The notes under the pieces are model-generated. The model made no database searches. It worked only from the letters and a program-made list of their open reading frames with translations, and was not told where the DNA came from. A stretch of DNA of 64,000 bases, from assembly GCA_018819405.1 (NCBI GenBank), contig JAHJQF010000001.1:371277-435276 (forward strand), written 5' to 3'. Every line of letters begins with the position of its first letter. Position 1 is the first letter of the stretch. A program made the translations under genes and the position numbers. This DNA is from Patescibacteria group bacterium (GTDB lineage: Bacteria; Patescibacteriota; Patescibacteriia; UBA1558; GWA2-36-10). Positions 15,274 to 47,095 of this stretch are shown piece by piece.

Positions 15274-15311
15274 ACCTGCGGCGCGCTTTGGCGCGCCGCA
15301 GGTTTTGTTTT
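15274..15311. terminator. Bidirectional rho-independent terminator
   Basis: acctgcggcgcgc / gcgcgccgcaggt perfect 13-bp stem with tttg loop, flanked by A-run and T-run; separates convergent genes. Confidence 0.8.
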
Positions 15312-16374
15312 ACAGGCTATCGAGAATCTCGGTCAGCTTTTCAGCGATGACCGTAGCTACTGAGACATTTTCCACCAGACCGCCAGTCTGGTTTTCGTAA
15401 GAACGATGGATAGTGTCTCCAGCCAGGACTCGGGTGAAAGGACTGGTCCTTTTGCGACCAACCCTTCTTTTCCAGGGGGGCGAACACTTCATGTGGGTGG
15501 CGACCAGCTCTACCTGGAAAGCCTCGGCTCGCAACAGGTCGCGGCAGGTGTCAGCGGCAGTACCACCGGTATCGAGCTCATCTTCCCGCATGATGATGTA
15601 GGCGTCCTTGACGGTTTCCGAGTTGATGAGTTGGATTTCAACTCCATATTCCTGGCTTATCTTTTCGATGAAAGTCAGGTCTTGCGGTGTGGGTTCAACA
15701 TTGGTGACAATGTTGCCGGTTTCTTTGCGCTTTTTCAAGCTCAGGAGCACCGGTACGTCCAGTGACTTAGCAATGGCTACTGCCCTCAAGAGTGAACCTT
15801 TGTCCGGGGACAGAATCTTGAATTCTTTGTCGAGTTCCTTGGCCTTGGTCAGGCTGGACTTGAGAGCCGCTATGTACAACGGTGTAGGTTTGACGTGGTA
15901 GGTCTCCAGGCCGACTTGCTGGCAGTTGAGCATTGTTCTTTCGGAATGGATGTCGCAGACAAGCATACGGTCTGCTCCGTTGGCCTTGATGTTCTCCATG
16001 AACCAGAGGTTGAGGTCAAATTCTTCGGGGATCTCCGGATGATCCTGTCGTCGAAAAGCCATAAAGGGCTGAACAACGGTCAGACTCTTGGCGCCGTACT
16101 TTTTCTTGATCGCTCGGATGAGGATCAAAAGCTCCAAGACTAGGTGTGGTTTGTGGGTGCTCAGAAAGAGTACTGCGTGCTTGCCGGCGATGTCTTCCCA
16201 GCGGTCAAAACAGAAGTCAGGCTCACTGTCCGGCCACCAACCGAAATCGGTGTGGGACAGGCTGAGTGGTACTTATTTGATCCGGCGTATATTGACAGCG
16301 TCAATGATTTTTTGGGCCAGGTGGTTGGTGTCTCCGCGTCCGCAGAGCATCAGGATTTCTTCGGAGTGTGCCAT
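15310..16374 (-). pseudogene. prs: Ribose-phosphate pyrophosphokinase (PRPP synthetase, Prs family)-like gene interrupted by one in-frame TAA (minus-strand codon at 16275..16273), in a ~55% GC island
   Basis: Prs-collinear translation: MAHSEEILMLCGRGDTNHLAQKIIDAV...(TAA)...FLSTHKPHLVLELLILIRAIKKKYGAKSLTVVQPFMAFRRQD...DELDTGGTAADTC. Strong SD gggagg 5 nt before the ATG. GC content far above flanks. Confidence 0.55.
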
Positions 16375-18143: not shown

Positions 18144-18587
18144 TCAAATCAAATCGTACAGCCGGATGTCAAAGATGACTTTGCTGGCAAAATTGACTAG
18201 GGCAATGCCCACGCCGATAATCCAGCAGGTCAGCAGGAACTTGAATTGGAATTTTCTCAGACGTGGGTATTCTCTTTTTGTTCCTTTGGCTATCAGAAAC
18301 AAAAAGAGGGAGAAGAAGCCAAATAAACCAATGCCAGCCAGGCTGATATGAGTGATAAACAGCAGGCTGTGCCATGGCGCTTGGTCTGTCGAGTTCATTC
18401 GTGGTAGAGATCCTGAGGAAGCGGATACAGCCATGACGATGTCCAGGCAAATGCCTATTGTCAGCCAGAGCATGAAATGCCCTTTATTTTGGTAAAATCG
18501 GACACTGGCTATCAGGTAAGGCAGAAAGGCGATGACTTGGATGCCTATGACCCACAAATGGGCTAAATACCAGGGCGAATTTTCCAT
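18144..18587 (-). CDS. Hypothetical polytopic membrane protein (GC content ~47%, above local background)
   Basis: 4-5 predicted TM helices; no family recognised. Confidence 0.45.
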   Translation of the reverse strand: MENSPWYLAHLWVIGIQVIAFLPYLIASVRFYQNKGHFMLWLTIGICLDIVMAVSASSGSLPRMNSTDQAPWHSLLFITHISLAGIGLFGFFSLFLFLIAKGTKREYPRLRKFQFKFLLTCWIIGVGIALVNFASKVIFDIRLYDLI

Positions 18588-18661: not shown

Positions 18662-19465
18662 CTAAAGTCTTTTGAGGTAATTTTTTGCTGCTACTTTTGT
18701 TTCAAAATGCAGAGCTTTTTTTATATGGGTACTTTCAGCACCTTCAGATTTTAATCGGTGAGCCAAAGTGTTTCTTAGTATTTGGGGGTTGATAATTACT
18801 GGCGGATCAATACCTATGGCATATTTAGAAATCAGCCTTTCAATTGAGCGGACACTTAAATGCTCATTTTTACTTTTATTTGATCTATCAAAATTTATAA
18901 ATAAATATTGATTGTTATCTAGCCTTTGGTTTATGTATTTATCAAGATGAAACCAGGTTATAGGTTTTATAAGAATATGTTTTTTGGGATTGATAATAAT
19001 TTCTTTTTTTATTTGATCTATTTGATCAAGGCGCAACTGGCATAATTGTCCGACTTTTAATCCGCTGTAATATAAAATCTCTAATATTGCTTTATCACGC
19101 AGGGCTATCAATCCTTTTTTTGTCAGAGGTTTATCTAAAAATACCTGAAGTTGTTCATTATTTAATATTTTGATTGGCGCATCTTGATCAGAGAGAAGAT
19201 CAAATTGAAATCTTTTATTTAAAAATTTAAGATAGTTATTTACAATTTTTAGGCGTAGATTGACAGTATTTACTCTTTGATATTTTCTAGTTAAATATAT
19301 AAAATATAATTTAAGGTTTTTTTCGGTGATTTTTTCTTCCCCAAGCCAAACTAGGAATTTTTCCAAATTCCAAAGATAGCTTTTTATAGTACTAGGGGCT
19401 AAGGCGAGAGATTTTAAGTATTTTTTGTATTCATTTACCCCGTTAGAAATTTTAGTAGTCGACAT
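18662..19465 (-). CDS. Tyrosine site-specific recombinase (XerC/XerD / phage integrase family)
   Basis: N-terminal SAM-like core-binding region and C-terminal catalytic segment with R...HRL...Y (LRNTLAHRL...KNYLKRL). Confidence 0.75.
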   Translation of the reverse strand: MSTTKISNGVNEYKKYLKSLALAPSTIKSYLWNLEKFLVWLGEEKITEKNLKLYFIYLTRKYQRVNTVNLRLKIVNNYLKFLNKRFQFDLLSDQDAPIKILNNEQLQVFLDKPLTKKGLIALRDKAILEILYYSGLKVGQLCQLRLDQIDQIKKEIIINPKKHILIKPITWFHLDKYINQRLDNNQYLFINFDRSNKSKNEHLSVRSIERLISKYAIGIDPPVIINPQILRNTLAHRLKSEGAESTHIKKALHFETKVAAKNYLKRL

Positions 19466-36313: not shown

Positions 36314-38282
36314 ATGATTCTTGGAAAAATTCTAAAATATCGCCGACTTCTATAATTGGTTCACCTTTATATTCTAAGCCAGCTTCATTGCCGGTTACTA
36401 CTTCGGCGACATTTTCTTTGGCTGACTGCAGACTGACAAGTTGGCCAATGGTCTCTACTTGTTCATTTTTTAGGACTTTTATTTTGCTGTCTTTGCTTAT
36501 TTTTCCTTCTATGACTTTGCCACCAACTATCATGCCGCCTTTGGTGGTTTTAAATATTGCCAAGACCTGCATTTTACCCAAAAATTTGTGAATAGTTTTT
36601 TTACCTTTTATGGCAGTCAATATCTTTTCTACTTCTTCTAATAGTTTGTATATAATATCAAAGTGGAGGATAGTAACATGTTTTTCATTGGCTAGGGTGG
36701 CAGTGTTTTTGTTTTCTTTTATATGAAAACCAATAATAATAGCATTAGTTGCTTCGGCATTTAAGACATCATCTTCAGTAATCTGACCCAAACCTTTTTT
36801 GATAACTTTTAATCTGGTATCTTCTACTTTTATTTTTGACAATGATTCTTCTATGGCTTCGGCTGACCCCATTACATCTGATTTGATGATTAGATTAAGA
36901 TGGGCAGTATTTTGTTCTTCCTCGCCATTATTATTGCTACTATTACTGACTTTTACGGCTTTGCTTTGGCTACTCATTTCCTTGAGACGTGATTTGAATT
37001 CTTTTTTGTCTTGGATGACTTCTAATATTTCGCCGACTTTTGGTAATTGTTTTAGGCCGAGGATTTTAACCGGAGTAGAGGGTAGAGCGCTATTTAGGTT
37101 TTTACCAGTCCAGTCCTGCATGATTTTTATCTTGCCCGATACTGAGCCAACACAAAAAGTATCACCAAGTTGCAGATTACCAGCTTGGACTAAGACAGTG
37201 GCTACTGGTCCGGCGCTTTTGTCTACATGAGATTCAATGATTGTGCCGACAGCCGGTCCTGTAGAATCAGCTTTCTTTTCTTCCATATCAGCCACCAAAA
37301 GAATCATATCCAAAAGCTCAGGAATATTTTTTTTGAATTTGGCAGATATTGGCTGGCAGATTATTTTGCCACCCCAATCTTCTGGGATCAAATTAATTTC
37401 GGAAAGCCCTTGTTTTACTTTGTCGATGTCAGCTTCCTCTTTGTCGATTTTGTTTATTGCTACTACGAAAGGTAATTTTTCTTTTTGGATGACAGAAATA
37501 CTTTCTAGTGTTTGCGGTTGCAAACCATCATCAGCCGCAACCACTAGGATAGCTACGTCAGCTATTTGGCCTCCGCGACTTCGCATAGCCTTGAAAGCTT
37601 CATGTCCGGGAGTATCTAAGAAAGTAATCAGTCTATCGCGAGTGACTACCTGGTAAGCACCAATATGTTGGGTAATGCCACCTGCTTCTTGATCAACTAC
37701 ATTGGTTTCACGGATTGCATCAAGCAACTTTGTTTTACCGTGGTCGACGTGACCCATGACTACTACTACTGGTGGGCGAGTGTCTTTGGCTGTGCGCTTG
37801 CCCAATAGCGATTCTAGTTTTTCTCTTTTGCTCTGCTCTTGTATTATTTCTTCGTCGGATTTTATAGCTTTGAATCCTAAATCCTCAGCTATGATAGTGG
37901 CTGTATCAAAATCAATACGCTCATTGAGAGAAACCATAATGCCGTTTTTCATCAGTTCACCCATCAGCTTAGCGACTGGCAACTTCATAAGCTCGGCCAT
38001 ATCTTTGACAATTATGGTTTCACCCATTGATATTTCTTTACTAGCTTTTTTTTGTTCAGTTTCAGCTTGTAGATTTTCTTTACCCCTTTCTTCTACCTGA
38101 GAAAGCTCGTGTTGCATACGGGCTTTTTTGACCTGTTTTCTCCAAGCCTCGGTTATTTTGGGGACCAAGTTGTCATCTACTTTGATAGCTCTAGCTCCAA
38201 TATCAAAACCAAGTTCCGGTAATTTTTCCAGGAGCTCGGTGGTTGTTACTTTGAGTTGTCTAGCAAGAGCACTTACATTCAT
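36306..38282 (-). CDS. infB: Translation initiation factor IF-2 (short N-terminal region)
   Basis: G domain GHVDHGKT, DTPGHEAF, NKID; C-terminal beta-barrels; 658 aa. Confidence 0.95.
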   Translation of the reverse strand: MNVSALARQLKVTTTELLEKLPELGFDIGARAIKVDDNLVPKITEAWRKQVKKARMQHELSQVEERGKENLQAETEQKKASKEISMGETIIVKDMAELMKLPVAKLMGELMKNGIMVSLNERIDFDTATIIAEDLGFKAIKSDEEIIQEQSKREKLESLLGKRTAKDTRPPVVVVMGHVDHGKTKLLDAIRETNVVDQEAGGITQHIGAYQVVTRDRLITFLDTPGHEAFKAMRSRGGQIADVAILVVAADDGLQPQTLESISVIQKEKLPFVVAINKIDKEEADIDKVKQGLSEINLIPEDWGGKIICQPISAKFKKNIPELLDMILLVADMEEKKADSTGPAVGTIIESHVDKSAGPVATVLVQAGNLQLGDTFCVGSVSGKIKIMQDWTGKNLNSALPSTPVKILGLKQLPKVGEILEVIQDKKEFKSRLKEMSSQSKAVKVSNSSNNNGEEEQNTAHLNLIIKSDVMGSAEAIEESLSKIKVEDTRLKVIKKGLGQITEDDVLNAEATNAIIIGFHIKENKNTATLANEKHVTILHFDIIYKLLEEVEKILTAIKGKKTIHKFLGKMQVLAIFKTTKGGMIVGGKVIEGKISKDSKIKVLKNEQVETIGQLVSLQSAKENVAEVVTGNEAGLEYKGEPIIEVGDILEFFQESYE

Positions 38283-38602
38283 CCCATTTAGAAATTTATT
38301 TTGTTAAACATGGTAAAATCATAAAAATTTTATGAGCTATACTGTCTAATTATATTAGTCAAATATAGTATAATTGTTTTACTCCGTTAGAGTTTTGTGA
38401 GTTTCTAACGGGTTCATGATTTTGTAGAATTAAATGAATACACTGAAAAAACGTGTATTTTTTAAATAGTTCGCCCTAACTCTACTAAATTATCCTAAAA
38501 AAGTCAATCCTTCCACTTGGCTCAGGCTAGATAATTTGTGGTTTTTTAGTATTGACAATATTCCATAAATGTTATAGATTTAATGGTCAAAATAAAATTT
38601 AA

Positions 38603-39712
38603 ATGGAATTAGAAATCAAAAAATTAAATAAGCTTTTGGGGCAAGCAAATAATATCTTGATCAGCGGACCAAAAGATTCAAATTTGGATGTGTTAGGCGC
38701 GGCTTATGCCTGGCATATTTTTTTATCATCCAATAAAAAGAAAGTAGATATTGCTTTTGATGGTAAGATAGCTAAGTATAATTTTTTTCCAGAAAATATA
38801 AATATAGATAATAGTCTGGGGGAATTAAATAAATTTAAGATTATTTTGGATGTTTCCAAGACTCAAGTCAAGCAACTTAGCTATGATGTCAGGGGAGATA
38901 AGTTGGAAATTGATATAGTGCCACAAGACGGTTTATTCTCAGCTCAAGATGTTAGTACGGCTCGGGGGAATTATAAATATGATTTGGTTATTACCTTGGG
39001 GGCGGATAGTCTAGATGTTTTGGGTAATATATTTTCAGAAAACAGGGATTTATTTCACAGTCGTCCTATAGTCAATATAGATAATTCTGTTTTAAATGAA
39101 AATTATGGGGAGTTGGATATAGTAGAAGCTAGCGCCACTTCAGTATCTGAAATATCCTATAATATTTTAAAAAAATATTTAGATAAAGAAATGTCAACTT
39201 ATCTTTTGGCTGGCATGATATTTGCCACGTCCAGTTTTCAGTCGCCAAAAGTGACACCTTATACTTTAGAAATTGCCAGTAATCTGATAATAAAAGGGGC
39301 TCAACGAGAAAAAATAATAGACACTTTATATCGTACTAAAGATATAAGCACTCTCAAGAGTTGGGGTAAAGTGCTTTCTAGGATAAAAAAAACGGGGCCA
39401 CTTATTAGCTCATTTTTGCGTCACGAAGAAGCTGAATATTTACCAGAGAGCTTTGAAGAAATGATAAAAGATTTGATACTGTCTACGCCAGATGCTCAGG
39501 TAGCAATTATATTTTATCAGCTGGAGCTGCAGCGTACCGAAGTCTGGGTCTATGCCAGTAATAATATAAATGCTAGTGACTTGGTCAAAGATATCCAAGG
39601 TAAAGGTAATCGTCGCAGCGCTAAATTGGAAATAGATAAAGATATAGAGGCTGCCCAGGAATTTTTGTTGGATAAGATACAAAAGAAATTGGATATTATA
39701 AATAGTGCCTAG
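38603..39712 (+). CDS. DHH-family-like protein with degenerate catalytic motif (NIDNS in place of NIDHH), probably non-catalytic paralog
   Basis: Overall DHH/DHHA1 architecture (ILISGPKDSNLDVLGAAYA ... NIDNSVLNENYG) but the DHH His residues are substituted. Confidence 0.5.
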   Translation: MELEIKKLNKLLGQANNILISGPKDSNLDVLGAAYAWHIFLSSNKKKVDIAFDGKIAKYNFFPENINIDNSLGELNKFKIILDVSKTQVKQLSYDVRGDKLEIDIVPQDGLFSAQDVSTARGNYKYDLVITLGADSLDVLGNIFSENRDLFHSRPIVNIDNSVLNENYGELDIVEASATSVSEISYNILKKYLDKEMSTYLLAGMIFATSSFQSPKVTPYTLEIASNLIIKGAQREKIIDTLYRTKDISTLKSWGKVLSRIKKTGPLISSFLRHEEAEYLPESFEEMIKDLILSTPDAQVAIIFYQLELQRTEVWVYASNNINASDLVKDIQGKGNRRSAKLEIDKDIEAAQEFLLDKIQKKLDIINSA

Positions 39713-39763
39713 ACTTCACAAAAAGTCCGTCTTACTCTATAATATTTATGTTTATTTAATTTA

Positions 39764-39840
39764 TCGTCCTGTAGCTCAGCTGGTTAGAGCACCACTCTTA
39801 TAAAGTGGGGGTCCTGGGTTCAAGTCCCAGCAGGACGACC
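39764..39840 (+). tRNA. tRNA-Ile with anticodon UAU (reads AUA)
   Basis: Manual fold: acceptor cgtcctg/caggacg with one G-U, D-arm gctc/gagc, anticodon stem ccact/agtgg with loop cttataa (anticodon TAT), T-arm ctggg-ttcaagt-cccag, discriminator A, encoded CCA. Confidence 0.8.
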
Positions 39841-39898
39841 AGATTGACATTTTATCCACTATTTGCTATATTTCTATCGTTAAATTTATTATCAAGAT

Positions 39899-39988
39899 AT
39901 GGGAACAAAACTAAAGAATAAAAGATTATCTGTAAAAAGACGTCGCAGAAAGAAACTCAAGAGACGCAATAGATTTAAAAATAAATAA
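39899..39988 (+). CDS. 29-aa highly basic peptide (MGTKLKNKRLSVKRRRRKKLKRRNRFKNK), possibly a bS22-like small ribosomal protein
   Basis: Unlisted short ORF; composition and MG(T/S)...KRRR..KKL.RR.R pattern resemble small ribosomal protein bS22. No SD. Confidence 0.25.
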   Translation: MGTKLKNKRLSVKRRRRKKLKRRNRFKNK

Positions 39989-40167
39989 TTTTTACCTGTC
40001 TACGGTAGGTAGGTATTTATTCAATAAAGAACCGTTTTTGCCTAGCGCGATTATTGTGGCATTAGCGGTTTTTTGTTAGGTTTAAAAGATAAAAAATCGC
40101 GCCCCCTTTTTCCAACATAGGATTAAGGGGGCGTTAGTATAGGCTGACCGCCTATTGTGTTGTAGAC

Positions 40168-40461
40168 TCAGGCCACCTTGGCCAGAGTAGGGTAGGAGGA
40201 GATCCTAGCCAAACCAGGGTCTTCAAACTGGACAGCAAAGTAGGAATCGGACATCCCGACCAGCCGGCCTTGTCTGATACCAGAAAGCCAGTAGATCCAG
40301 CGTATATCACCACGCTTGACGACCACGAAAGTGCGGCGTCCTTTGTGGATGATGGCCTTGCGTCCGGTTAGGGAATTGGTCAAGGTCAGGTCTCGGTGTA
40401 GGATAGCCGTTACGCGAGGCAGTTCCGGTAGGAGTTCTTGGAGTTTTTCCAGAGTAGACAT
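40168..40461 (-). CDS. Small basic protein, candidate RelE/ParE-like toxin partner
   Basis: 97 aa from internal ATG 40461 (MSTLEKLQ...). Segment RRTFVVVKRGDIRWIYWLSGIRQ resembles RelE/ParE-fold toxins (weak). Confidence 0.35.
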   Translation of the reverse strand: MSTLEKLQELLPELPRVTAILHRDLTLTNSLTGRKAIIHKGRRTFVVVKRGDIRWIYWLSGIRQGRLVGMSDSYFAVQFEDPGLARISSYPTLAKVA

Positions 40462-40465
40462 GAGT

Positions 40466-40708
40466 TTAGCTCCCTTCAGGCAGGCGAAGCAGCCGATTGA
40501 AGATGCTGGGGTCTTCGACAAAGCTTCGAATTTCACCAATCTGGTCAAGGTCGTAGTTGAAGTAAAGGGTGTAGGAGCCAGCTGGCAAAATGATGATTTC
40601 TTGGACTTGTCCGGTTATAGGGTCGATGACTTCAACACTGGTGTTTGTGTCCAGGACAATGGTCTTGGGATCAGCGAGGATTGACTGAAATTTTTCGGCT
40701 TGAGTCAT
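40466..40708 (-). CDS. Small acidic protein, candidate antitoxin of a two-gene toxin-antitoxin-like module (GC-rich island)
   Basis: 80 aa, pI acidic. Stop separated by 4 nt from the downstream basic ORF; SD aagggag for the downstream gene lies in its 3' end. Confidence 0.35.
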   Translation of the reverse strand: MTQAEKFQSILADPKTIVLDTNTSVEVIDPITGQVQEIIILPAGSYTLYFNYDLDQIGEIRSFVEDPSIFNRLLRLPEGS

Positions 40709-40978
40709 GACATTTTCCTCCTAGTGAAAAGAACAGATTTGAGCATAAAAAAATATTCCTTTTCAGGAATATTTAATTCACTCTATATAAATATTTTTTT
40801 CTTTGACAAATTCAGAACTGAGAAAAAATAAAAGCCCTTTATCGGGGGTCATTTTCTGATGATGGGCATATCTTTTTTTCATCTTTATAATTATAGCAAA
40901 AATAAATATTTGGTCAACTAGTCTTAAAATAAAGGGAAAATTGAAGCCCCCACCAAGATGTCTGTCTATAGTGGGGGC

Positions 40979-41176
40979 TCAAGCTTGGCCGGGGCTTAGT
41001 GATCCGTTTTGGATCAATTGGAGGTGCTGTCTCAGTGCTTGTTCAACTTCTTGGGCCGTTTCTTTCCGGCAGTAGAGGCGAGCTACATCAATCGCCGCAT
41101 GTAGGGTTTTTTCATCGGGTAGGGAGTAAAAGTTTTGGATAGCCATGGCCATGAGTTTGGCGCCGTCTTCTTGCAT
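40979..41176 (-). CDS. 65-aa hypothetical protein with canonical SD and sigma70-like promoter
   Basis: SD ggaggtga 4 nt upstream of ATG. Promoter TTGACA (41266..41261) -17 nt- TATAAA (41243..41238) on minus strand. Confidence 0.4.
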   Translation of the reverse strand: MQEDGAKLMAMAIQNFYSLPDEKTLHAAIDVARLYCRKETAQEVEQALRQHLQLIQNGSLSPGQA

Positions 41177-41306
41177 GGTTTCACCTCCTTGAGGTTTCGA
41201 GTTAAGGACAGGGCGGAGAAAAATAGAGTAATATTTATTTATAATATTAATATTGGTATTTGTCAAGAAAAGGAAGGCCGCCCGACTAGAAGCCGGGCGG
41301 CTATGT

Positions 41307-41657
41307 TTAGGAAGCATTGACAGCCTCTTCGGCATCATTGTCTTCCGATACGTCCTCGGTAGGTGTGAGTTGTGGCAGCAACTCCAGGACCTTGAGAGGC
41401 ACGATGGAAACCCTGAGACCAGGGTAGTCTTTTTGGGTGGAGGCCCAAATCCAGCTGGTTATAGATTGGCCGACCATGCGACCTTGGTCAAGCTCTTTCT
41501 TGATGACCAAGAGGTCATGAGGAAAGATAGTAGGATCTCCTGGATTGGCTATCCTGACCAACTTGTAAGTACCAGCGGCGTAGACTATTGGTTTCCCCTG
41601 GATAAGAGGGCTTGGGAACAGGGTATCCTCCTCTGTGGAAAAGTCTATGAGGTTCAT
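41307..41657 (-). CDS. 116-aa hypothetical protein (strand choice uncertain in GC-rich DNA)
   Basis: Co-oriented with all other island genes and protein-like composition. The overlapping plus-strand ORF 41253..41687 is the alternative. Confidence 0.3.
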   Translation of the reverse strand: MNLIDFSTEEDTLFPSPLIQGKPIVYAAGTYKLVRIANPGDPTIFPHDLLVIKKELDQGRMVGQSITSWIWASTQKDYPGLRVSIVPLKVLELLPQLTPTEDVSEDNDAEEAVNAS

Positions 41658-41965
41658 CGGGTGATGAGCAACGAGGGTGAAGATTAAGTGCTTTGCGACG
41701 TTGCCTCCGTGCTAGAGAAGTGAGTGAGGTGCGAGTGGCGGGGGGATATATTTTTATTATACACAAAAAATAGGATAAGGGAAATTTTTATAATTTTTAT
41801 AAAAAGAAAGCCGCCCTGGAACGTTTGGCGTTCCAGGGCGGAGGGAAAAACAAGGTCAGCTAGCTTGTACGTATCTAGGACTTGTTTTCGAATTGGCTGG
41901 GGTTGAAATCAACAACCACTATCAGTCGTTGGGGGAGATGGCAGATTTAGTATAATAGTTCCTTT

Positions 41966-42592
41966 CTAGACAGGGTAATTACCTCTGAGTCGGAGCCACT
42001 CTTCACGACCTTTGGGGCGTATAGCTTCGGAGCCGGCCAGACACAAGGGACAGTCCTGAGGTTGCCAGGTGTCAATCTGGGGAGCGATCAAGCTGATGAT
42101 CTTACGACCATCCAGATCAGATAATCCCGATCGGTTGACCAGCGCTAGAATGGTATGGCTCACAATCCCGCCTGCTTCGCTTATACCGGCGATGCTCTGG
42201 CGGGTGGTTTTGCCAGTAGTCATGACATCTTCAACCATTAGTACCCTGGTGCCAGGCTTCAGTGGAAAGCGTTTGAGCAACATCTGGTTGTCAACCTTTT
42301 CGGTGAAGCCGGCTTCCTTCTCCATACTCAGAGCCAGTTGGTAGGCCAGAGTGACGCCGCCCATGGCTGAACCAATAACCATATCATATGGACAATTGTG
42401 TAGCCAGTTGGCCTGATTGGCCAGGTGCCAGCAAGCCTTTTCCAGTAGAGCAGGGTTGCGGATAATTAGGCTACAGTTGACAAAGCCGTTGGAGTGCAGT
42501 CCACTGGTCAAAAGAGCGTGGGGACGCTGAGGATTGTTGTCGTGGAGCCACAGGGCACCGGTTTGTTTGAAGACTTCCAGCCACATGAACAT
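41966..42592 (-). CDS. Orotate phosphoribosyltransferase-like PRTase (PyrE family), in GC-rich island
   Basis: PRPP loop VLMVEDVMTTGKTTRQSIAGISEAGG and DMVIGSAMGGVTLAYQLA segment are collinear with PyrE. Confidence 0.6.
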   Translation of the reverse strand: MFMWLEVFKQTGALWLHDNNPQRPHALLTSGLHSNGFVNCSLIIRNPALLEKACWHLANQANWLHNCPYDMVIGSAMGGVTLAYQLALSMEKEAGFTEKVDNQMLLKRFPLKPGTRVLMVEDVMTTGKTTRQSIAGISEAGGIVSHTILALVNRSGLSDLDGRKIISLIAPQIDTWQPQDCPLCLAGSEAIRPKGREEWLRLRGNYPV

Positions 42593-42679
42593 GATTTAGC
42601 CTTTCTGTTGGGAGTGAACTATTTTTGACAAGCTAGCGCCTTGTCTGTTTTTCGGACTAATTTTTCTATATTTAATGAT

Positions 42680-42730
42680 TTTTGTCAATTGATAAAGCTT
42701 TTTTAATTTTGAGAAATAAGGTAAAATATA
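42680..42730 (+). repeat. 51-nt direct repeat copy 1 (promoter-like: ttgtca ... taaaatata)
   Basis: Identical to 42832..42882 except one base (g/c). Confidence 0.8.
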
Positions 42731-42733
42731 GAT

Positions 42734-42823
42734 ATGAATTTAAGAAAATTTTATTTAGGTAGAGCTATAGGATTTGTAGTAGTTTTGGTGCTAGCTTTTA
42801 TTTGGTGGTTATTTTTTAAATAA
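42734..42823 (+). CDS. 29-aa hydrophobic single-TM peptide (MNLRKFYLGRAIGFVVVLVLAFIWWLFFK) between the two repeat copies, upstream of mgtE
   Basis: Unlisted short ORF beginning 3 nt after repeat copy 1 and ending 9 nt before copy 2. Confidence 0.3.
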   Translation: MNLRKFYLGRAIGFVVVLVLAFIWWLFFK

Positions 42824-42831
42824 TAATATTA

Positions 42832-42882
42832 TTTTGTCAATTGATAAAGCTTTTTTAATTTTGAGAAATAAGCTAAAATATA
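42832..42882 (+). repeat. 51-nt direct repeat copy 2, immediately upstream of mgtE
   Basis: See copy 1. Confidence 0.8.
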
Positions 42883-42904
42883 AGTATAGCATTTTAAAAT
42901 AAAA

Positions 42905-43897
42905 ATGGATAAAAATCTAAGCACTAATTTTCCAAAACATTCAGCCGGAGACATTATGACAGTCTCGGTGCCAATAGTCAGTCCGGAAAATACTATCCGA
43001 ACCGTAGAAGAATATCTTCTCAAAGATGTCAGGAAGTTGGAATCCATAAACTATGTTTATGTCCTTTCCAAAACAGGTTTATTAAAAGGTGTAATGTCGG
43101 TCAAAGAGATTTTTCGTCAGCCAAAAAACAAAATCGTATCGGAGGTAATGGTCAAAAATTTAGTGACGGCTCATCCCTATACAGATAGAGAAAGAGTGGC
43201 ATTTATATCTTTGAAAAATAATATCAAAGCTGTGCCAGTTGTTGATAAGGATAATAAATTTTTGGGTGCGGTTTTGAGTGATACTATATTAGATGCTATT
43301 TATCAGGAGTCTCAAGAAGACATTTTGCACTTAGCTGGTGTGGAACAGTACACCAAATTCAACATTGATAACATCAGCTCTTTGTCCATGCTTGTATCTT
43401 TGAAACATCGTTTACCATGGCTGATCATTGGTTTGTTGGGTGGTATATTGGCCGCTCAAATAATAGGTCTTTTTGAACACACGCTGTCTGAAAATATTAT
43501 TTTAGCTTCTTTTATACCATTGGTAGTTTATATGGCCAGCGCGGTTGGTACTCAAGTGGGCTTTTTTATTATTCGTGATTTAGCTATCAACCCAAAACTT
43601 AATTTTTTTATTTATACCATAAAACAGTTTAGGGTAATATTTTTTATAGGTGTAGTGGTCAGTATTTTAATATTTATAGTTACTTTGGTTTTTTATAGTA
43701 ATATCTCGGTAGCTTTTGTCTTGGCTTTGGCTATGTTTTTGGCAATTTTGTCTTCTATTATTACGGGCTTATTTATTCCTTATGCATTTTCCAGATTACG
43801 TTTTGATCCCGCTAATGCTAGTGGCCCGATTGCAACGATTATTCAGGATCTAACAAGTGTGACAATATATCTCTTGGTGGCTAAATGGCTTTTATAA
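42905..43897 (+). CDS. mgtE: Magnesium transporter MgtE (CBS pair + MgtE TM domain; short N-domain)
   Basis: Two CBS motifs, then TM domain with PWLIIGLLGG and DPANASGPIATIIQD signatures. Confidence 0.8.
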   Translation: MDKNLSTNFPKHSAGDIMTVSVPIVSPENTIRTVEEYLLKDVRKLESINYVYVLSKTGLLKGVMSVKEIFRQPKNKIVSEVMVKNLVTAHPYTDRERVAFISLKNNIKAVPVVDKDNKFLGAVLSDTILDAIYQESQEDILHLAGVEQYTKFNIDNISSLSMLVSLKHRLPWLIIGLLGGILAAQIIGLFEHTLSENIILASFIPLVVYMASAVGTQVGFFIIRDLAINPKLNFFIYTIKQFRVIFFIGVVVSILIFIVTLVFYSNISVAFVLALAMFLAILSSIITGLFIPYAFSRLRFDPANASGPIATIIQDLTSVTIYLLVAKWLL

Positions 43898-43911
43898 ATA
43901 ATTTTAATAAT

Positions 43912-44394
43912 ATGAAAAAATCACAAAATATTAACAAATTATTTATTGCAATTGTATTGTGTTTGTCAGTTGGTTTTTTGGGTTCAATTTTTACTACACC
44001 GGCTATAGACACCTGGTATAATACTTTGCAAAAACCGGATTTTAATCCGCCTAGTTGGATTTTTGGACCGGTTTGGACAACGCTTTATATACTGATGGGA
44101 ATTGCTTTATTTTTTGTCTGGCAAAAAGGGCTTAAAAAAAGAAATGTGCGTTTTGCTTTTTGGCTGTTTATAATGCATTTGGTTTTTAATCTTTTTTGGT
44201 CAATTTTATTTTTTGGATTAAAAAATATAGGTCTAGCTATGATAGATATTTTAGTTTTATGGCTTATGATTATAGCTTTGATTTATAGTTTTTGTGAGAT
44301 AGACAAAAAAGCGGCTTGGTTACTAGTGCCATACTTTTTTTGGGTTAGTTTTGCCGGTGCCTTAAATTATGCAATTTGGCTTTTAAATAAATGA
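43912..44394 (+). CDS. tspO: TspO/MBR family tryptophan-rich sensory protein
   Basis: WYNTLQKPDFNPPSWIFGPVWTTLYILMG...VPYFFWVSFAGALN; 5 TM helices. Start at the internal Met. Confidence 0.8.
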   Translation: MKKSQNINKLFIAIVLCLSVGFLGSIFTTPAIDTWYNTLQKPDFNPPSWIFGPVWTTLYILMGIALFFVWQKGLKKRNVRFAFWLFIMHLVFNLFWSILFFGLKNIGLAMIDILVLWLMIIALIYSFCEIDKKAAWLLVPYFFWVSFAGALNYAIWLLNK

Positions 44395-44577
44395 TGAAAT
44401 ATTTTAGCTAATCAAGACAGGTTTCTTTTTGATATAGTGCTATTATTTGTGGCCATAGTATTAATCTTGGGTGGAGCGGCATTCCTAATCAAAAAATATA
44501 AAAACTAGAAAGTATAAAAAAGCGCTTGTTAAAAAGCGTTTTTTTGTTTTTCTTGTCCATTGTACCATCATAGTACA

Positions 44578-44667
44578 TGGCGGTGGGGGTGGGATTTGAA
44601 CCCACGAGCCGCTTTCACGACTACCGGTTTTCGAGACCAGCGCTTTCAACCACTCAGCCACCCCACC
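44578..44667 (-). tRNA. tRNA-Ser (anticodon CGA), long variable arm
   Basis: rc sequence ggtggggtggctgagtggttgaaagcgctggtctcgaaaaccggtagtcgtgaaagcggctcgtgggttcaaatcccaccccaccgcca; anticodon loop ctCGAaa. Confidence 0.85.
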
Positions 44668-44679
44668 ATTTTATATAAA

Positions 44680-45708
44680 TTATCCAATCTTTTTATTATC
44701 CATATCTTTTAGTGTATTTAAAAATCTCTTGCTATATTTTGGCAAAGTGATAGAGACTCTCATCATATCTTCTCCTAAAAACATCGCTACTTTAAAATTT
44801 TGTTTGGCCACAATGTTTTTTAATTTGTTCAATATTTTTTTGTTTACTTTGATCAATATAAAGTTGGTGCAACTTTTATAGGCTATAAAATTTTTTAGTT
44901 TGTTTATTTCTTCTGTCAGATTGTCACGATCTTTAATTATTTTTTTGGCAATATTTCCGTAATAATTAGTTGAGTCTAAGGCAGCGATAGCAATATTTTC
45001 CAGAATTTGGCTGAAATTTAAATAATATGCTTGATAATTTATAATTTTTAAAGCCTGTTTTCCAGCCAGAGCATAGCCAATGCGCAGTCCTGCTAAACCA
45101 TAAAATTTGGAAAAAGTTCTGACCAGCATTAGGTGAGGGTATTTTTTGGTAAGGTTAATATATTTTTTATCTTGATAGTTTGGGTCAAAACCAAAGTATG
45201 CTTCGTCCAGTATTACTAGAGTATTTTTTGATACAGTATTTAAAACTTTTTTTAAATCAGCAAAATTTAGTACATTGCCGGTTGGGTTGTTTGGTGAAGT
45301 GAGTAAGACTATACTTGGTTTATATTTTTTATATTTTTTTATCAAATCATCTATATCAAAATAAAAACTATTTTTATCAGACACCATTTTGGATTCATAC
45401 ATTTTTATTTTTAGGTGTTTGAGATAGCTAGAAAAATAAGCAAAGTGGTATTGGTTGACTAAGATGGAATCTTTTTTTCTATCAAGTGATCTAAAAAGTC
45501 CTCTAAAGAAATCTTCCAAGCCATAAAATATCAAAATTTGCTGGCTAGGAAAATTGAATTTTTTGGATATTTTTTCAGCCAAAGGAGAATGATAATAGCC
45601 ACCTATATATCGGGATATTTTTTGTTGGGGGAAATTTTTGATAGCTTTTTTTACTTTGTCTGATGGTGGGTAAAAAAGCTCATTGCGATTTATGATGTAT
45701 TGTTTCAT
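44680..45708 (-). CDS. Class I/II PLP-dependent aminotransferase (HisC/CobD-like)
   Basis: SPNNPTGNVL, ILDEAYFGF, FSKFYGLAGLRIGY (Schiff-base Lys). Start trimmed to the Met at 45708 because the longer ORF overlaps the tRNA-operon 3' hairpin. Confidence 0.6.
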   Translation of the reverse strand: MKQYIINRNELFYPPSDKVKKAIKNFPQQKISRYIGGYYHSPLAEKISKKFNFPSQQILIFYGLEDFFRGLFRSLDRKKDSILVNQYHFAYFSSYLKHLKIKMYESKMVSDKNSFYFDIDDLIKKYKKYKPSIVLLTSPNNPTGNVLNFADLKKVLNTVSKNTLVILDEAYFGFDPNYQDKKYINLTKKYPHLMLVRTFSKFYGLAGLRIGYALAGKQALKIINYQAYYLNFSQILENIAIAALDSTNYYGNIAKKIIKDRDNLTEEINKLKNFIAYKSCTNFILIKVNKKILNKLKNIVAKQNFKVAMFLGEDMMRVSITLPKYSKRFLNTLKDMDNKKIG

Positions 45709-45735
45709 GGTTTTATAATAATTGCCTTTCGACTC

Positions 45736-45845
45736 GCTTCGCTCGCTCAAGACACTCGATTCTACAAATCTAGAATGGTCGTAGGTGTTTTTAAACACCG
45801 AAAAACACGAGTGAGGCTTTTGCGAAGCAAATGGCGAATCGAGTG
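45736..45845 (-). terminator. Large imperfect inverted repeat immediately 3' of the tRNA operon (probable operon terminator/processing hairpin)
   Basis: Arms cactcgattc (45753-62) / gaatcgagtg (45836-45) plus gcttcgc/gcgaagc extension; inner palindrome ggtgtttttaaacacc (45784-99). Confidence 0.4.
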
Positions 45846-45920
45846 GTGGACCGTGCCGGAATTGAACCGGCGGCCTCTACAATGCGAATGTAGCGCTCTA
45901 GCCATCTGAGCTAACGGCCC
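45844..45920 (-). tRNA. tRNA-Ala (anticodon CGC), G3-U70 identity pair present
   Basis: rc gggccgttagctcagatggctagagcgctacattCGCattgtagaggccgccggttcaattccggcacggtccacca. Confidence 0.85.
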
Positions 45921-45944
45921 GCGTTGCTAGGAAGTGGTTATACG

Positions 45945-46021
45945 TGGTCGGAGTGGTGGGACTTGAACCCACGACCTCATCGTCCCGAACGATGCGCGCT
46001 AGCCAACTGCGCCACACCCCG
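45945..46021 (-). tRNA. tRNA-Pro (anticodon CGG)
   Basis: rc cggggtgtggcgcagttggctagcgcgcatcgttCGGgacgatgaggtcgtgggttcaagtcccaccactccgacca. Confidence 0.85.
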
Positions 46022-46123
46022 TGAACTACTCGTCGTTTGACGACTCGAGTTCACGGCAGGCCTCTTAATTATCTAAGTAGATGGGGCTTGCCATAAACCG
46101 GAGCGCCAAGCGCGACTGGTTTA

Positions 46124-46210
46124 TGGTACCGAAGAGAGGACTTGAACCTCCACGTCCTATTGGACACATGGCTCTGAACCATGCGCGTCTACCAATTCCG
46201 CCACTTCGGC
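46124..46210 (-). tRNA. tRNA-Leu (anticodon CAG), long variable arm
   Basis: rc gccgaagtggcggaattggtagacgcgcatggttCAGagccatgtgtccaataggacgtggaggttcaagtcctctcttcggtacca. Confidence 0.85.
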
Positions 46211-46669
46211 ATACAAATAAACCTTGTTTTTTGATAATGCTATATTGATGCCCCAATAGATTTGCCAATTCTCGTAGTCCCGCAAAGCGGGGCGCCACTT
46301 CGGCCTGTTATTATTATAGCAGTGATTCATTATATAGATAAATATGTAAGAAGTCAAAACTATAATAATCCTTTTCATATTTGTCAAAATATTGTGTAAT
46401 AGTTATATAAAAACAAGATAAAATTAAATAAAAACTTATGAAAAAATACATTATGATGTTTATAACTATAAGCATTTAGGCTACGCTACGTGTGGCTGTG
46501 TTTTTGATAGTTGTAATCTAGTCCCAAAAAGGGTAAAATAATAGTATAATTTTATTATAAATAATAAAAAATAAATTTATGAAACCGCCAGTATTTTTTT
46601 GGGTAATTATTGCTTTTCTAATCATTGCTCTTATTTTTGCCGCTATATTAAAATTTAATCAATAAAAAT

Positions 46670-47095
46670 ATGGGAAAAACATTTTATTGGCTGCCGAGAA
46701 TATTTGGTATTTTATTTACATTATTTGTTTCATTGTTTGTCCTAGATGTTTTTGATGGGCAATTTTCTTGGCTAGCACTTTTGATGCACCTTTTACCGAG
46801 TATATTACTTTTGATAGTCCTCATTGTATCTTGGAAAATGGAAAGGTTGGGGGCGGCACTTTGGTTTATCCTAGTCGTGGTGTATATAGTGATGACTTGG
46901 GGCAAGATTGATTGGTCAGCTTATCTGGCCATGGCTTTGCCAGCTCTAGTAATTGGCGTATTATTTTTGGTGTCTAATGGTTATGGTTCAGGGTTTTCTA
47001 CAACAAGTGATATCTCAATACCAAAACCTCAGTTTCGGTCAAAGCAAGATGCAAATTCTGCCAATAAGAATAACGATTCGTCAGCAGTTGGCTAA
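46670..47095 (+). CDS. Hypothetical membrane protein (4 TM)
   Basis: Hydrophobic ORF with a low-complexity C-terminal tail. Confidence 0.45.
   Translation: MGKTFYWLPRIFGILFTLFVSLFVLDVFDGQFSWLALLMHLLPSILLLIVLIVSWKMERLGAALWFILVVVYIVMTWGKIDWSAYLAMALPALVIGVLFLVSNGYGSGFSTTSDISIPKPQFRSKQDANSANKNNDSSAVG

Follow-up and report, generated by a model that had tools for sequence, protein, structure and literature searches.

A GC-rich island of five genes lies near a tRNA-Ile gene in the 64-kb stretch of DNA analysed here (hereafter the window), which belongs to a Patescibacteria group bacterium (assembly GCA_018819405.1, contig JAHJQF010000001.1, positions 371,277 to 435,276). The feature is genuine but of an ordinary kind, i.e. 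a compositional island with a salvage-type phosphoribosyltransferase (PRTase) and orphan genes in a genome of the Candidate Phyla Radiation (CPR). We consider it probable, at roughly 60%, that the island is an old, lineage-conserved cluster of autonomous cassettes led by Shine–Dalgarno (SD) sequences, which come from a CPR-restricted gene pool and are occasionally exchanged. The original prediction, made from the sequence alone, had instead proposed recent acquisition from a higher-GC donor, and had named beforehand the presence of the same genes with the same composition in relatives as the evidence that speaks against it. This is what we find: three related loci (L013, L021 and L022) carry island genes that are likewise GC-rich, while their flanks are AT-rich.

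Synteny, composition and age of the island

The landmark of the locus is a tRNA-Ile gene with a TAT (UAU) anticodon, which is uncommon in bacteria. A gene for a hyper-basic peptide of 29 amino acids (aa) stands beside this tRNA gene in the window, L013 and L021. In L013 (1.1 kb), tRNA-Ile(TAT) and the peptide gene are followed by a response-regulator remnant and then by a fused 80+97-aa gene that faces them. The order in L021 (2.6 kb) is PRTase gene, 116-aa homolog, a 69-aa open reading frame (ORF), a GC-rich 127-aa ORF, 29-aa peptide gene and tRNA-Ile(TAT), and the two hairpins found 3′ of the 69-aa ORF are those that also follow the 97-aa gene of the window. L022 contains the PRTase gene followed by the 116-aa homolog. 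The suggestion that relatives might show an empty site next to the tRNA did not hold: L013 and L021 are occupied at the same landmark, and no empty site was found in a limited search, which included the flanking DHH-like protein against GTDB genomes.

GC content climbs near position 40100 and drops near 42620. The island (40100–42620) has 47.8% GC compared with 36.3% in the rest of the window, which is the highest value among all windows of 2.52 kb (mean 0.367, s.d. 0.024; about +4.6 s.d.). Its coding stretches have 48–54% GC and a GC content at third codon positions (GC3) of 0.50–0.60, compared with 0.24–0.38 in 48 native genes, while AT-rich promoter spacers (e.g. 40700–40900 at 28–37% GC) lower the average of the island below that of its coding stretches. 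The predicted rise in GC is therefore real, but the ∼52% proposed for the whole 2.5 kb fits the coding stretches only. All five genes lie on the minus strand, as predicted, and each has a promoter-like site and a GC-rich hairpin terminator of its own; the TTGACA-17-TATAAA consensus promoter was also found again (41266–41238, minus strand).

A strong SD sequence (AAGGGAG, AGGAGG and AGGAGGTGA) occurs upstream of three of the five island genes (i.e. the 97-, 80- and 65-aa genes). No strong proximal SD was found upstream of the 116-aa gene and the PRTase gene. Across the window, the SD core is present in 5/7 GC-rich genes but in only 3/48 native genes (Fisher p = 3e-4). The predicted contrast with native genes is thus confirmed, but textbook SD sequences in all island genes were an overstatement.

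In the relatives, the modules have a GC3 of 0.45–0.78 and are SD-led, whereas the flanks are AT-rich (GC3 0.24–0.39) and SD-less. Homologs agree in just 28–49% of third bases at four-fold degenerate sites, a level close to saturation. Near-saturated synonymous sites and shared landmark synteny suggest that the cluster is older than the split of these lineages. The same genes and composition at the same locus in L013, L021 and L022 also argue that the island was not acquired recently and that its high GC is not an un-ameliorated signal. The island gene families have so far been found only in AT-rich, CPR-like contexts and are GC-rich in every one of them, which suggests that the cluster was acquired before the lineages diverged.

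On this reading, the island consists of separately transcribed cassettes. Every cassette opens with a promoter of the sigma-70 type and closes with a GC-rich hairpin terminator, and the GC-rich coding sequence in between is usually led by a strong SD. The core of the island is the PyrE-type PRTase and the 116-aa acidic-tailed protein. Variable cassettes lie between this core and the tRNA-Ile(UAU)/29-aa landmark, here the 65-aa orphan and a split 80/97-aa protein. Individual cassettes would later have been exchanged among CPR genomes, as may be the case for the 116-aa cassette, which together with its promoter and leader is ∼80% DNA-identical elsewhere in a metagenome-assembled genome of Parcubacteria.

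Several points weigh against this reading: (i) the relatives are short metagenomic contigs (1.1–2.6 kb), which limits what they show of species relationships and of the extent of synteny; (ii) the right flank differs, with MgtE in the window and Vut_1 in L022; (iii) homologs are few, i.e. three other loci (one partial) for the 116-aa protein and five homologs for the 97-aa protein; (iv) the reading calls for some mechanism that has kept GC3 high for so long, and it names no donor lineage; and (v) the window has no PyrF, so a role of the PRTase in forming orotidine monophosphate is incomplete here.

Alternative origins of the island

The cassettes between the landmark and the PRTase/116-aa core vary among the window, L013 and L021, and the module of L013 is far more diverged than its flank (DNA identity with the window only ∼65%, compared with ∼90%). 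The 116-aa cassette also recurs at another tRNA-proximal locus (L005) with 81% DNA identity, and XerC/D-like recombinases are present in the genome (e.g. 18662–19465). This pattern could reflect a site-specific mobile element, such as the remnant of a prophage or an integrative element in decay, or else a hot spot for cassette capture, with independent insertions beside tRNA-Ile(UAU) in each lineage and a recombinase possibly acting in trans. We regard this as unlikely because the order of PRTase gene and 116-aa gene and their orientation to the tRNA are constant across lineages, the cassettes are not bounded by recombination sites or repeats and no match was found in phage and viral collections. 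A phage origin was rejected on the latter basis: searches of 50,697 phage records and of IMG/VR gave no match to either DNA or proteins, and BFVD contained no structural match.

Recent, tRNA-targeted insertion from a higher-GC donor, with the integrase lost since, appears very improbable. The island does have the deviant base composition (both GC and GC3) expected of a tRNA-targeting integrative island, its GC3 and SD usage look foreign, it lies ∼260 bp from tRNA-Ile and GC-rich islands are known in Patescibacteria. However, L013 and L021 have the same genes at the tRNA/peptide landmark, and their synonymous divergence is near saturation; homologs of the small proteins are all in AT-rich contexts, with none in a GC-rich donor genome. 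A duplicated tRNA 3′ segment at the edges, which tRNA-targeted integration had led the original prediction to look for, is missing: a repeat search of the whole window revealed neither a direct repeat of the tRNA 3′ end nor any other flanking or att-like repeat. The sole local repeat is 78 nt long (42658–42735 and 42810–42887; 55-nt core with one mismatch) and lies wholly to the right of the island, where it represents a duplicated promoter region upstream of MgtE, with the first copy preceding a 29-aa hydrophobic ORF (42734–42823). As was noted at the outset, no integrase remains within the island; no integrase or recombinase occurs in 39700–43000, and the nearest tyrosine recombinase is at 18662–19465.

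Patescibacteria are known to have genomic islands and to have acquired nucleotide-metabolism genes horizontally (PMC12455944). The window locus resembles these acquired islands in being a compositionally deviant block of nucleotide-metabolism and hypothetical genes in a streamlined CPR genome. It differs from them in that (i) integrase, att repeats and mobility genes are absent; (ii) the same locus occurs in diverged relatives; (iii) it is GC-richer than its host; and (iv) its genes have individual promoters and terminators, usually with an SD as well (PMC12455944).

The sharp change in composition could also be an assembly or binning chimera of CPR sequence with a fragment of a GC-richer organism, but two large and separate contigs carry the proteins (NCBI, 1.04 Mb; JGI, 847 kb), the intergenic spacers of the island are AT-rich like the host and both junctions (tRNA/peptide to 97-aa module, and PRTase cluster to peptide and tRNA) recur in independent samples (L013, L021 and L022), and two independent assemblies and three independent samples with the same junctions practically exclude it.

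Genes and gene products of the locus

Table 1 Features of the tRNA-Ile locus and the GC-rich island (coordinates in the window)
Feature	Position	Strand	Remarks
tRNA-Ile, anticodon TAT (UAU)	39765..39841	+	ARAGORN; Rfam tRNA 71.8 bits; conserved left landmark of the locus
29-aa hyper-basic peptide gene (17 K/R)	39899..39988	+	ORF; native AT-rich composition
Two GC-rich hairpins with T-run, 3′ terminator region of 97-aa gene	40090..40155	-	hairpin 40139-40155
97-aa basic protein, pI 10.4	40168..40461	-	AAGGGAG SD
80-aa acidic protein, pI 4.1	40466..40708	-	AGGAGG SD
AT-rich promoter and leader of 80/97 operon	40709..40917	-	promoter-like sites 40917-40890 and 40809-40780
65-aa orphan gene	40979..41176	-	AGGAGGTGA SD; terminator hairpin 40946-40978
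TTGACA-17-TATAAA promoter of 65-aa gene	41238..41266	-	read from sequence
116-aa acidic-tailed protein	41307..41657	-	terminator 41277-41301; element 41277..41657
Promoter and leader of 116-aa gene, conserved, ∼100 nt	41658..41765	-	four-locus alignments
Terminator of PRTase gene, 13-bp stem	41811..41841	-	
PyrE-like (Thermus/Helicobacter-type) PRTase, 208 aa	41966..42592	-	
PRTase leader hairpin 42627-42645 and promoter-like site 42688-42660	42627..42688	-	right edge of the GC-rich stretch

Judged by sequence comparison, the PRTase is a Thermus/Helicobacter-type PyrE-like enzyme (Table 1), which bears out the predicted orotate-PRTase-like gene. Its match to TIGR01367 (pyrE_Therm) is full-length (119.7 bits, positions 3–185 of 187) but stays below the equivalog cut-off of 150.25, and PF00156 scores 29.5 bits (cut-off 26.3). 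Its nearest solved structure is the orotate phosphoribosyltransferase (OPRTase) 4PAW (E 1.6e-19). The motif for binding phosphoribosyl pyrophosphate (PRPP), VLMVEDVMTTGKT, aligns with ILVCEDIITTGKS of 4PAW, as does the C-terminal CPLC motif, and the protein has the Type I PRTase fold with a PRPP-binding loop. As a member of this family, it would join a base (orotate being the family substrate) to PRPP.

The PRTase has 477 homologs with 45–59% identity in Patescibacteria, Planctomycetota and Acidobacteriota. The pyrF gene comes next after the homologs in L001, L002/L003 and L019, which supports a true OPRTase family, but is not beside those in L004, L018, L021 and L022. No PyrF was found in the window by tblastn with two PyrF proteins, and a reading of the small island ORFs as decayed pyrF remnants was rejected. 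The enzyme is thus like TIGR01367 members and 4PAW in its full-length match, PRPP motif, CPLC motif and pyrF-adjoining homologs, and unlike TIGR01367 members in its sub-cut-off score, the missing pyrF and the conserved 116-aa gene downstream instead. In the CPR-like loci L004, L018 and L019, the PyrE-like genes are GC-richer and SD-led, while their neighbours are SD-less. The L022 PRTase gene is preceded by a promoter and leader hairpin comparable to the arrangement in the window.

The 116-aa protein has one homolog in an index of 5.8 billion proteins (P0128, 67% identity, Parcubacteria SURF_51). Two further homologs were identified by inspecting contigs (a 109-aa ORF in L021 and a partial one in L022), and both lie directly 3′ of the PRTase gene. 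The succession of PRTase gene and 116-aa gene is therefore a conserved pair in three lineages, which suggests that the 116-aa protein may be a functional partner of the PRTase. The L005 (Parcubacteria) cassette has no PRTase gene and stands beside other GC-rich, SD-led mini-cassettes and a tRNA-Thr gene; its DNA identity of 81% with the window extends over promoter, leader, coding sequence and the next promoter, but the genomic context differs. The promoter after the 116-aa gene, TTGACAA(A/T)TACCAA, is likewise conserved after the L005 homolog.

A leader of ∼100 nt precedes the 116-aa gene in four loci (window 41658–41765, minus strand; L005 1890–1995; L021 690–805; L022 1610–1727). It has a run of 5–6 C just after the –10 box and a AGCACGGAGGCAAnGTCG box ∼55 nt upstream of the start, and no proximal SD occurs in the conserved leader. 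The start codon is ATG in two loci, one of them the window, while CTG/TTG stands at the aligned position in the two remaining loci. The leader also holds the reading frame of the gene, with a stop codon just upstream of the AGCACGGAGGCAAnGTCG box. A structured RNA was considered and rejected, as RNAalifold on three and then four loci gave a weak fold without covariation. The AlphaFold2 (AF2) model of the protein is too poor for structural searches (predicted local distance difference test, pLDDT, 41), and the family alignment had no match in metagenome or viral contigs. A search with a degenerate DNA pattern for ANPGDPTIF returned only the known Parcubacteria locus and chance hits in FabH-like and lysozyme-like genes. 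In L005 (2400–3100), we also observed two mini-cassettes that abut tRNA-Thr(GGT). Both are GC-richer and SD-led and have their own TTGACA promoter and terminator; their products are a 48-aa hydrophobic peptide and an 89-aa Cys-rich protein.

The 80- and 97-aa ORFs are, from their alignments, the N- and C-terminal halves of one protein family that is a single polypeptide in some relatives. An exhaustive HMMER search of 1.84e9 (1.84 billion) representative proteins yielded five homologs of the 97-aa protein, two of which are single fused ORFs (P0129, 179 aa; P0130, 174 aa) whose N-terminal parts align to the 80-aa protein and C-terminal parts to the 97-aa protein. The 80-aa protein also aligns with a 79-aa ORF of L016. 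The AF2 model of the 97-aa protein (pLDDT 88) has a helix followed by a small beta-rich domain, with no significant fold match in PDB or among viral structures (BFVD) and no toxin-like fold. Paralogy between the 97- and 116-aa proteins was rejected, since a BLASTP E-value of 0.005 was accompanied by a profile–profile probability of only 4.8%, and paralogy between the 80- and 116-aa proteins was rejected on comparison.

These two genes had been taken for a toxin–antitoxin (TA)-like pair, which we now consider extremely unlikely. They share with type II TA operons (RelBE/ParDE-like) small size, adjacency on the same strand with tight spacing (a 4-nt gap here, a 4-nt overlap in L016) and opposite charge, the first product being acidic and the second basic. 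However, searches of Pfam, PADLOC, NCBIfam and PHROGs assigned neither ORF to a known toxin family (RelE/ParE, MazF, HicA, PIN and others), an antitoxin family or a defence family, the 97-aa model is not toxin-like, both halves are fused in P0129 and P0130, and the 80-aa protein has no detected DNA-binding motif and no match to ribbon–helix–helix, helix–turn–helix, AbrB or Phd-type families. A further difference from RelBE/ParDE-like operons is the long leader of the pair with a terminator-like hairpin and T-run, AATATTCCTGAAAAGGAATATTTTTTT (within 40709–40810, minus strand). This hairpin is conserved in a seawater-metagenome homolog (L014, 30–160) and may be an attenuator. The two-hairpin 3′ arrangement of the 97-aa gene is found also after its homologs in L013, L014, L016 and L021.

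The 29-aa peptide gene is a real, conserved gene with its own promoter (39844–39872) and terminator (39991–40015). Its product is identical to that of L013 at 28/29 residues (seven synonymous changes and one non-synonymous) and to that of L021 at 26/29. No match was found in NCBIfam, Pfam or PDB sequences. The ribosomal protein bS22 of F. johnsoniae (30 aa, pI 12.7) is similar in size and charge only (PMC7797042). The 65-aa ORF had no family match in Pfam, PADLOC, NCBIfam or PHROGs and no homolog in the fetched loci, and an Rfam search over 38000–47000 returned tRNAs only.

SD-led genes beyond the island and their meaning

Two further GC-rich cassettes lie outside the island. A Prs-like (ribose-phosphate diphosphokinase) gene at 15310..16374 (minus strand; ∼52% GC, GC3 0.64) is built in the same style: it has a promoter of the TTGACA type, is led by an AGGGAGG SD and ends in a GC-rich terminator. 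An in-frame TAA at 16273–16275 breaks its Pribosyltran_N domain; the gene could be a pseudogene, or the TAA could be a site of read-through or an error in the sequence. The other cassette is a GGAGG-led 147-aa ORF (18144–18587, minus strand; GC3 0.57), which looks membrane-embedded, has no family match and adjoins the XerC/D-like tyrosine recombinase gene (18662–19465, minus strand) of native composition.

Few strong-SD genes in an otherwise SD-less genome are also known from Bacteroidia, where rpsU/rpsR are SD-bearing exceptions translated by those ribosomes whose anti-SD has been freed (PMC7797042, PMC13000457). The parallel is no more than an analogy: the SD-led genes here are GC-rich orphans and salvage enzymes rather than ribosomal-protein genes, and the comparison concerns SD motifs alone, as the 16S rRNA (anti-SD) and bS21 genes lie outside the window.

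GC3 and SD motifs that stay high despite saturated synonymous divergence point, tentatively, to a class of cassettes confined to CPR, GC-rich, SD-led and each with its own promoter (PyrE-like, Prs-like and orphan small proteins), that persists for long in AT-rich, SD-less genomes; such a class is possible, though we would not count on it. If it exists, composition and SD motifs would be actively maintained rather than traces of un-ameliorated transfer. The genes of this class could then be gated at the level of translation and favoured by ribosomes whose anti-SD is free, in a manner resembling Bacteroidia rpsU. Alternatively, recombination among CPR genomes could be frequent enough to hold the pool GC-rich.

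A locus can thus look like a textbook case of a fresh island and yet be old and syntenic, and GC and SD anomalies alone over-call recent transfer here. The analysis also defines three very small protein families in CPR-like contexts only, i.e. the 116-aa PRTase partner, the two-part 80/97 protein and the 29-aa basic peptide. The clean two-class gene structure (AT-rich/SD-less and GC-rich/SD-led) may be used for studies of translation initiation and gene flow in Patescibacteria. Most nucleotide biosynthesis is missing in CPR bacteria, and the route by which they gain or keep PRPP-using enzymes bears on their life as symbionts.

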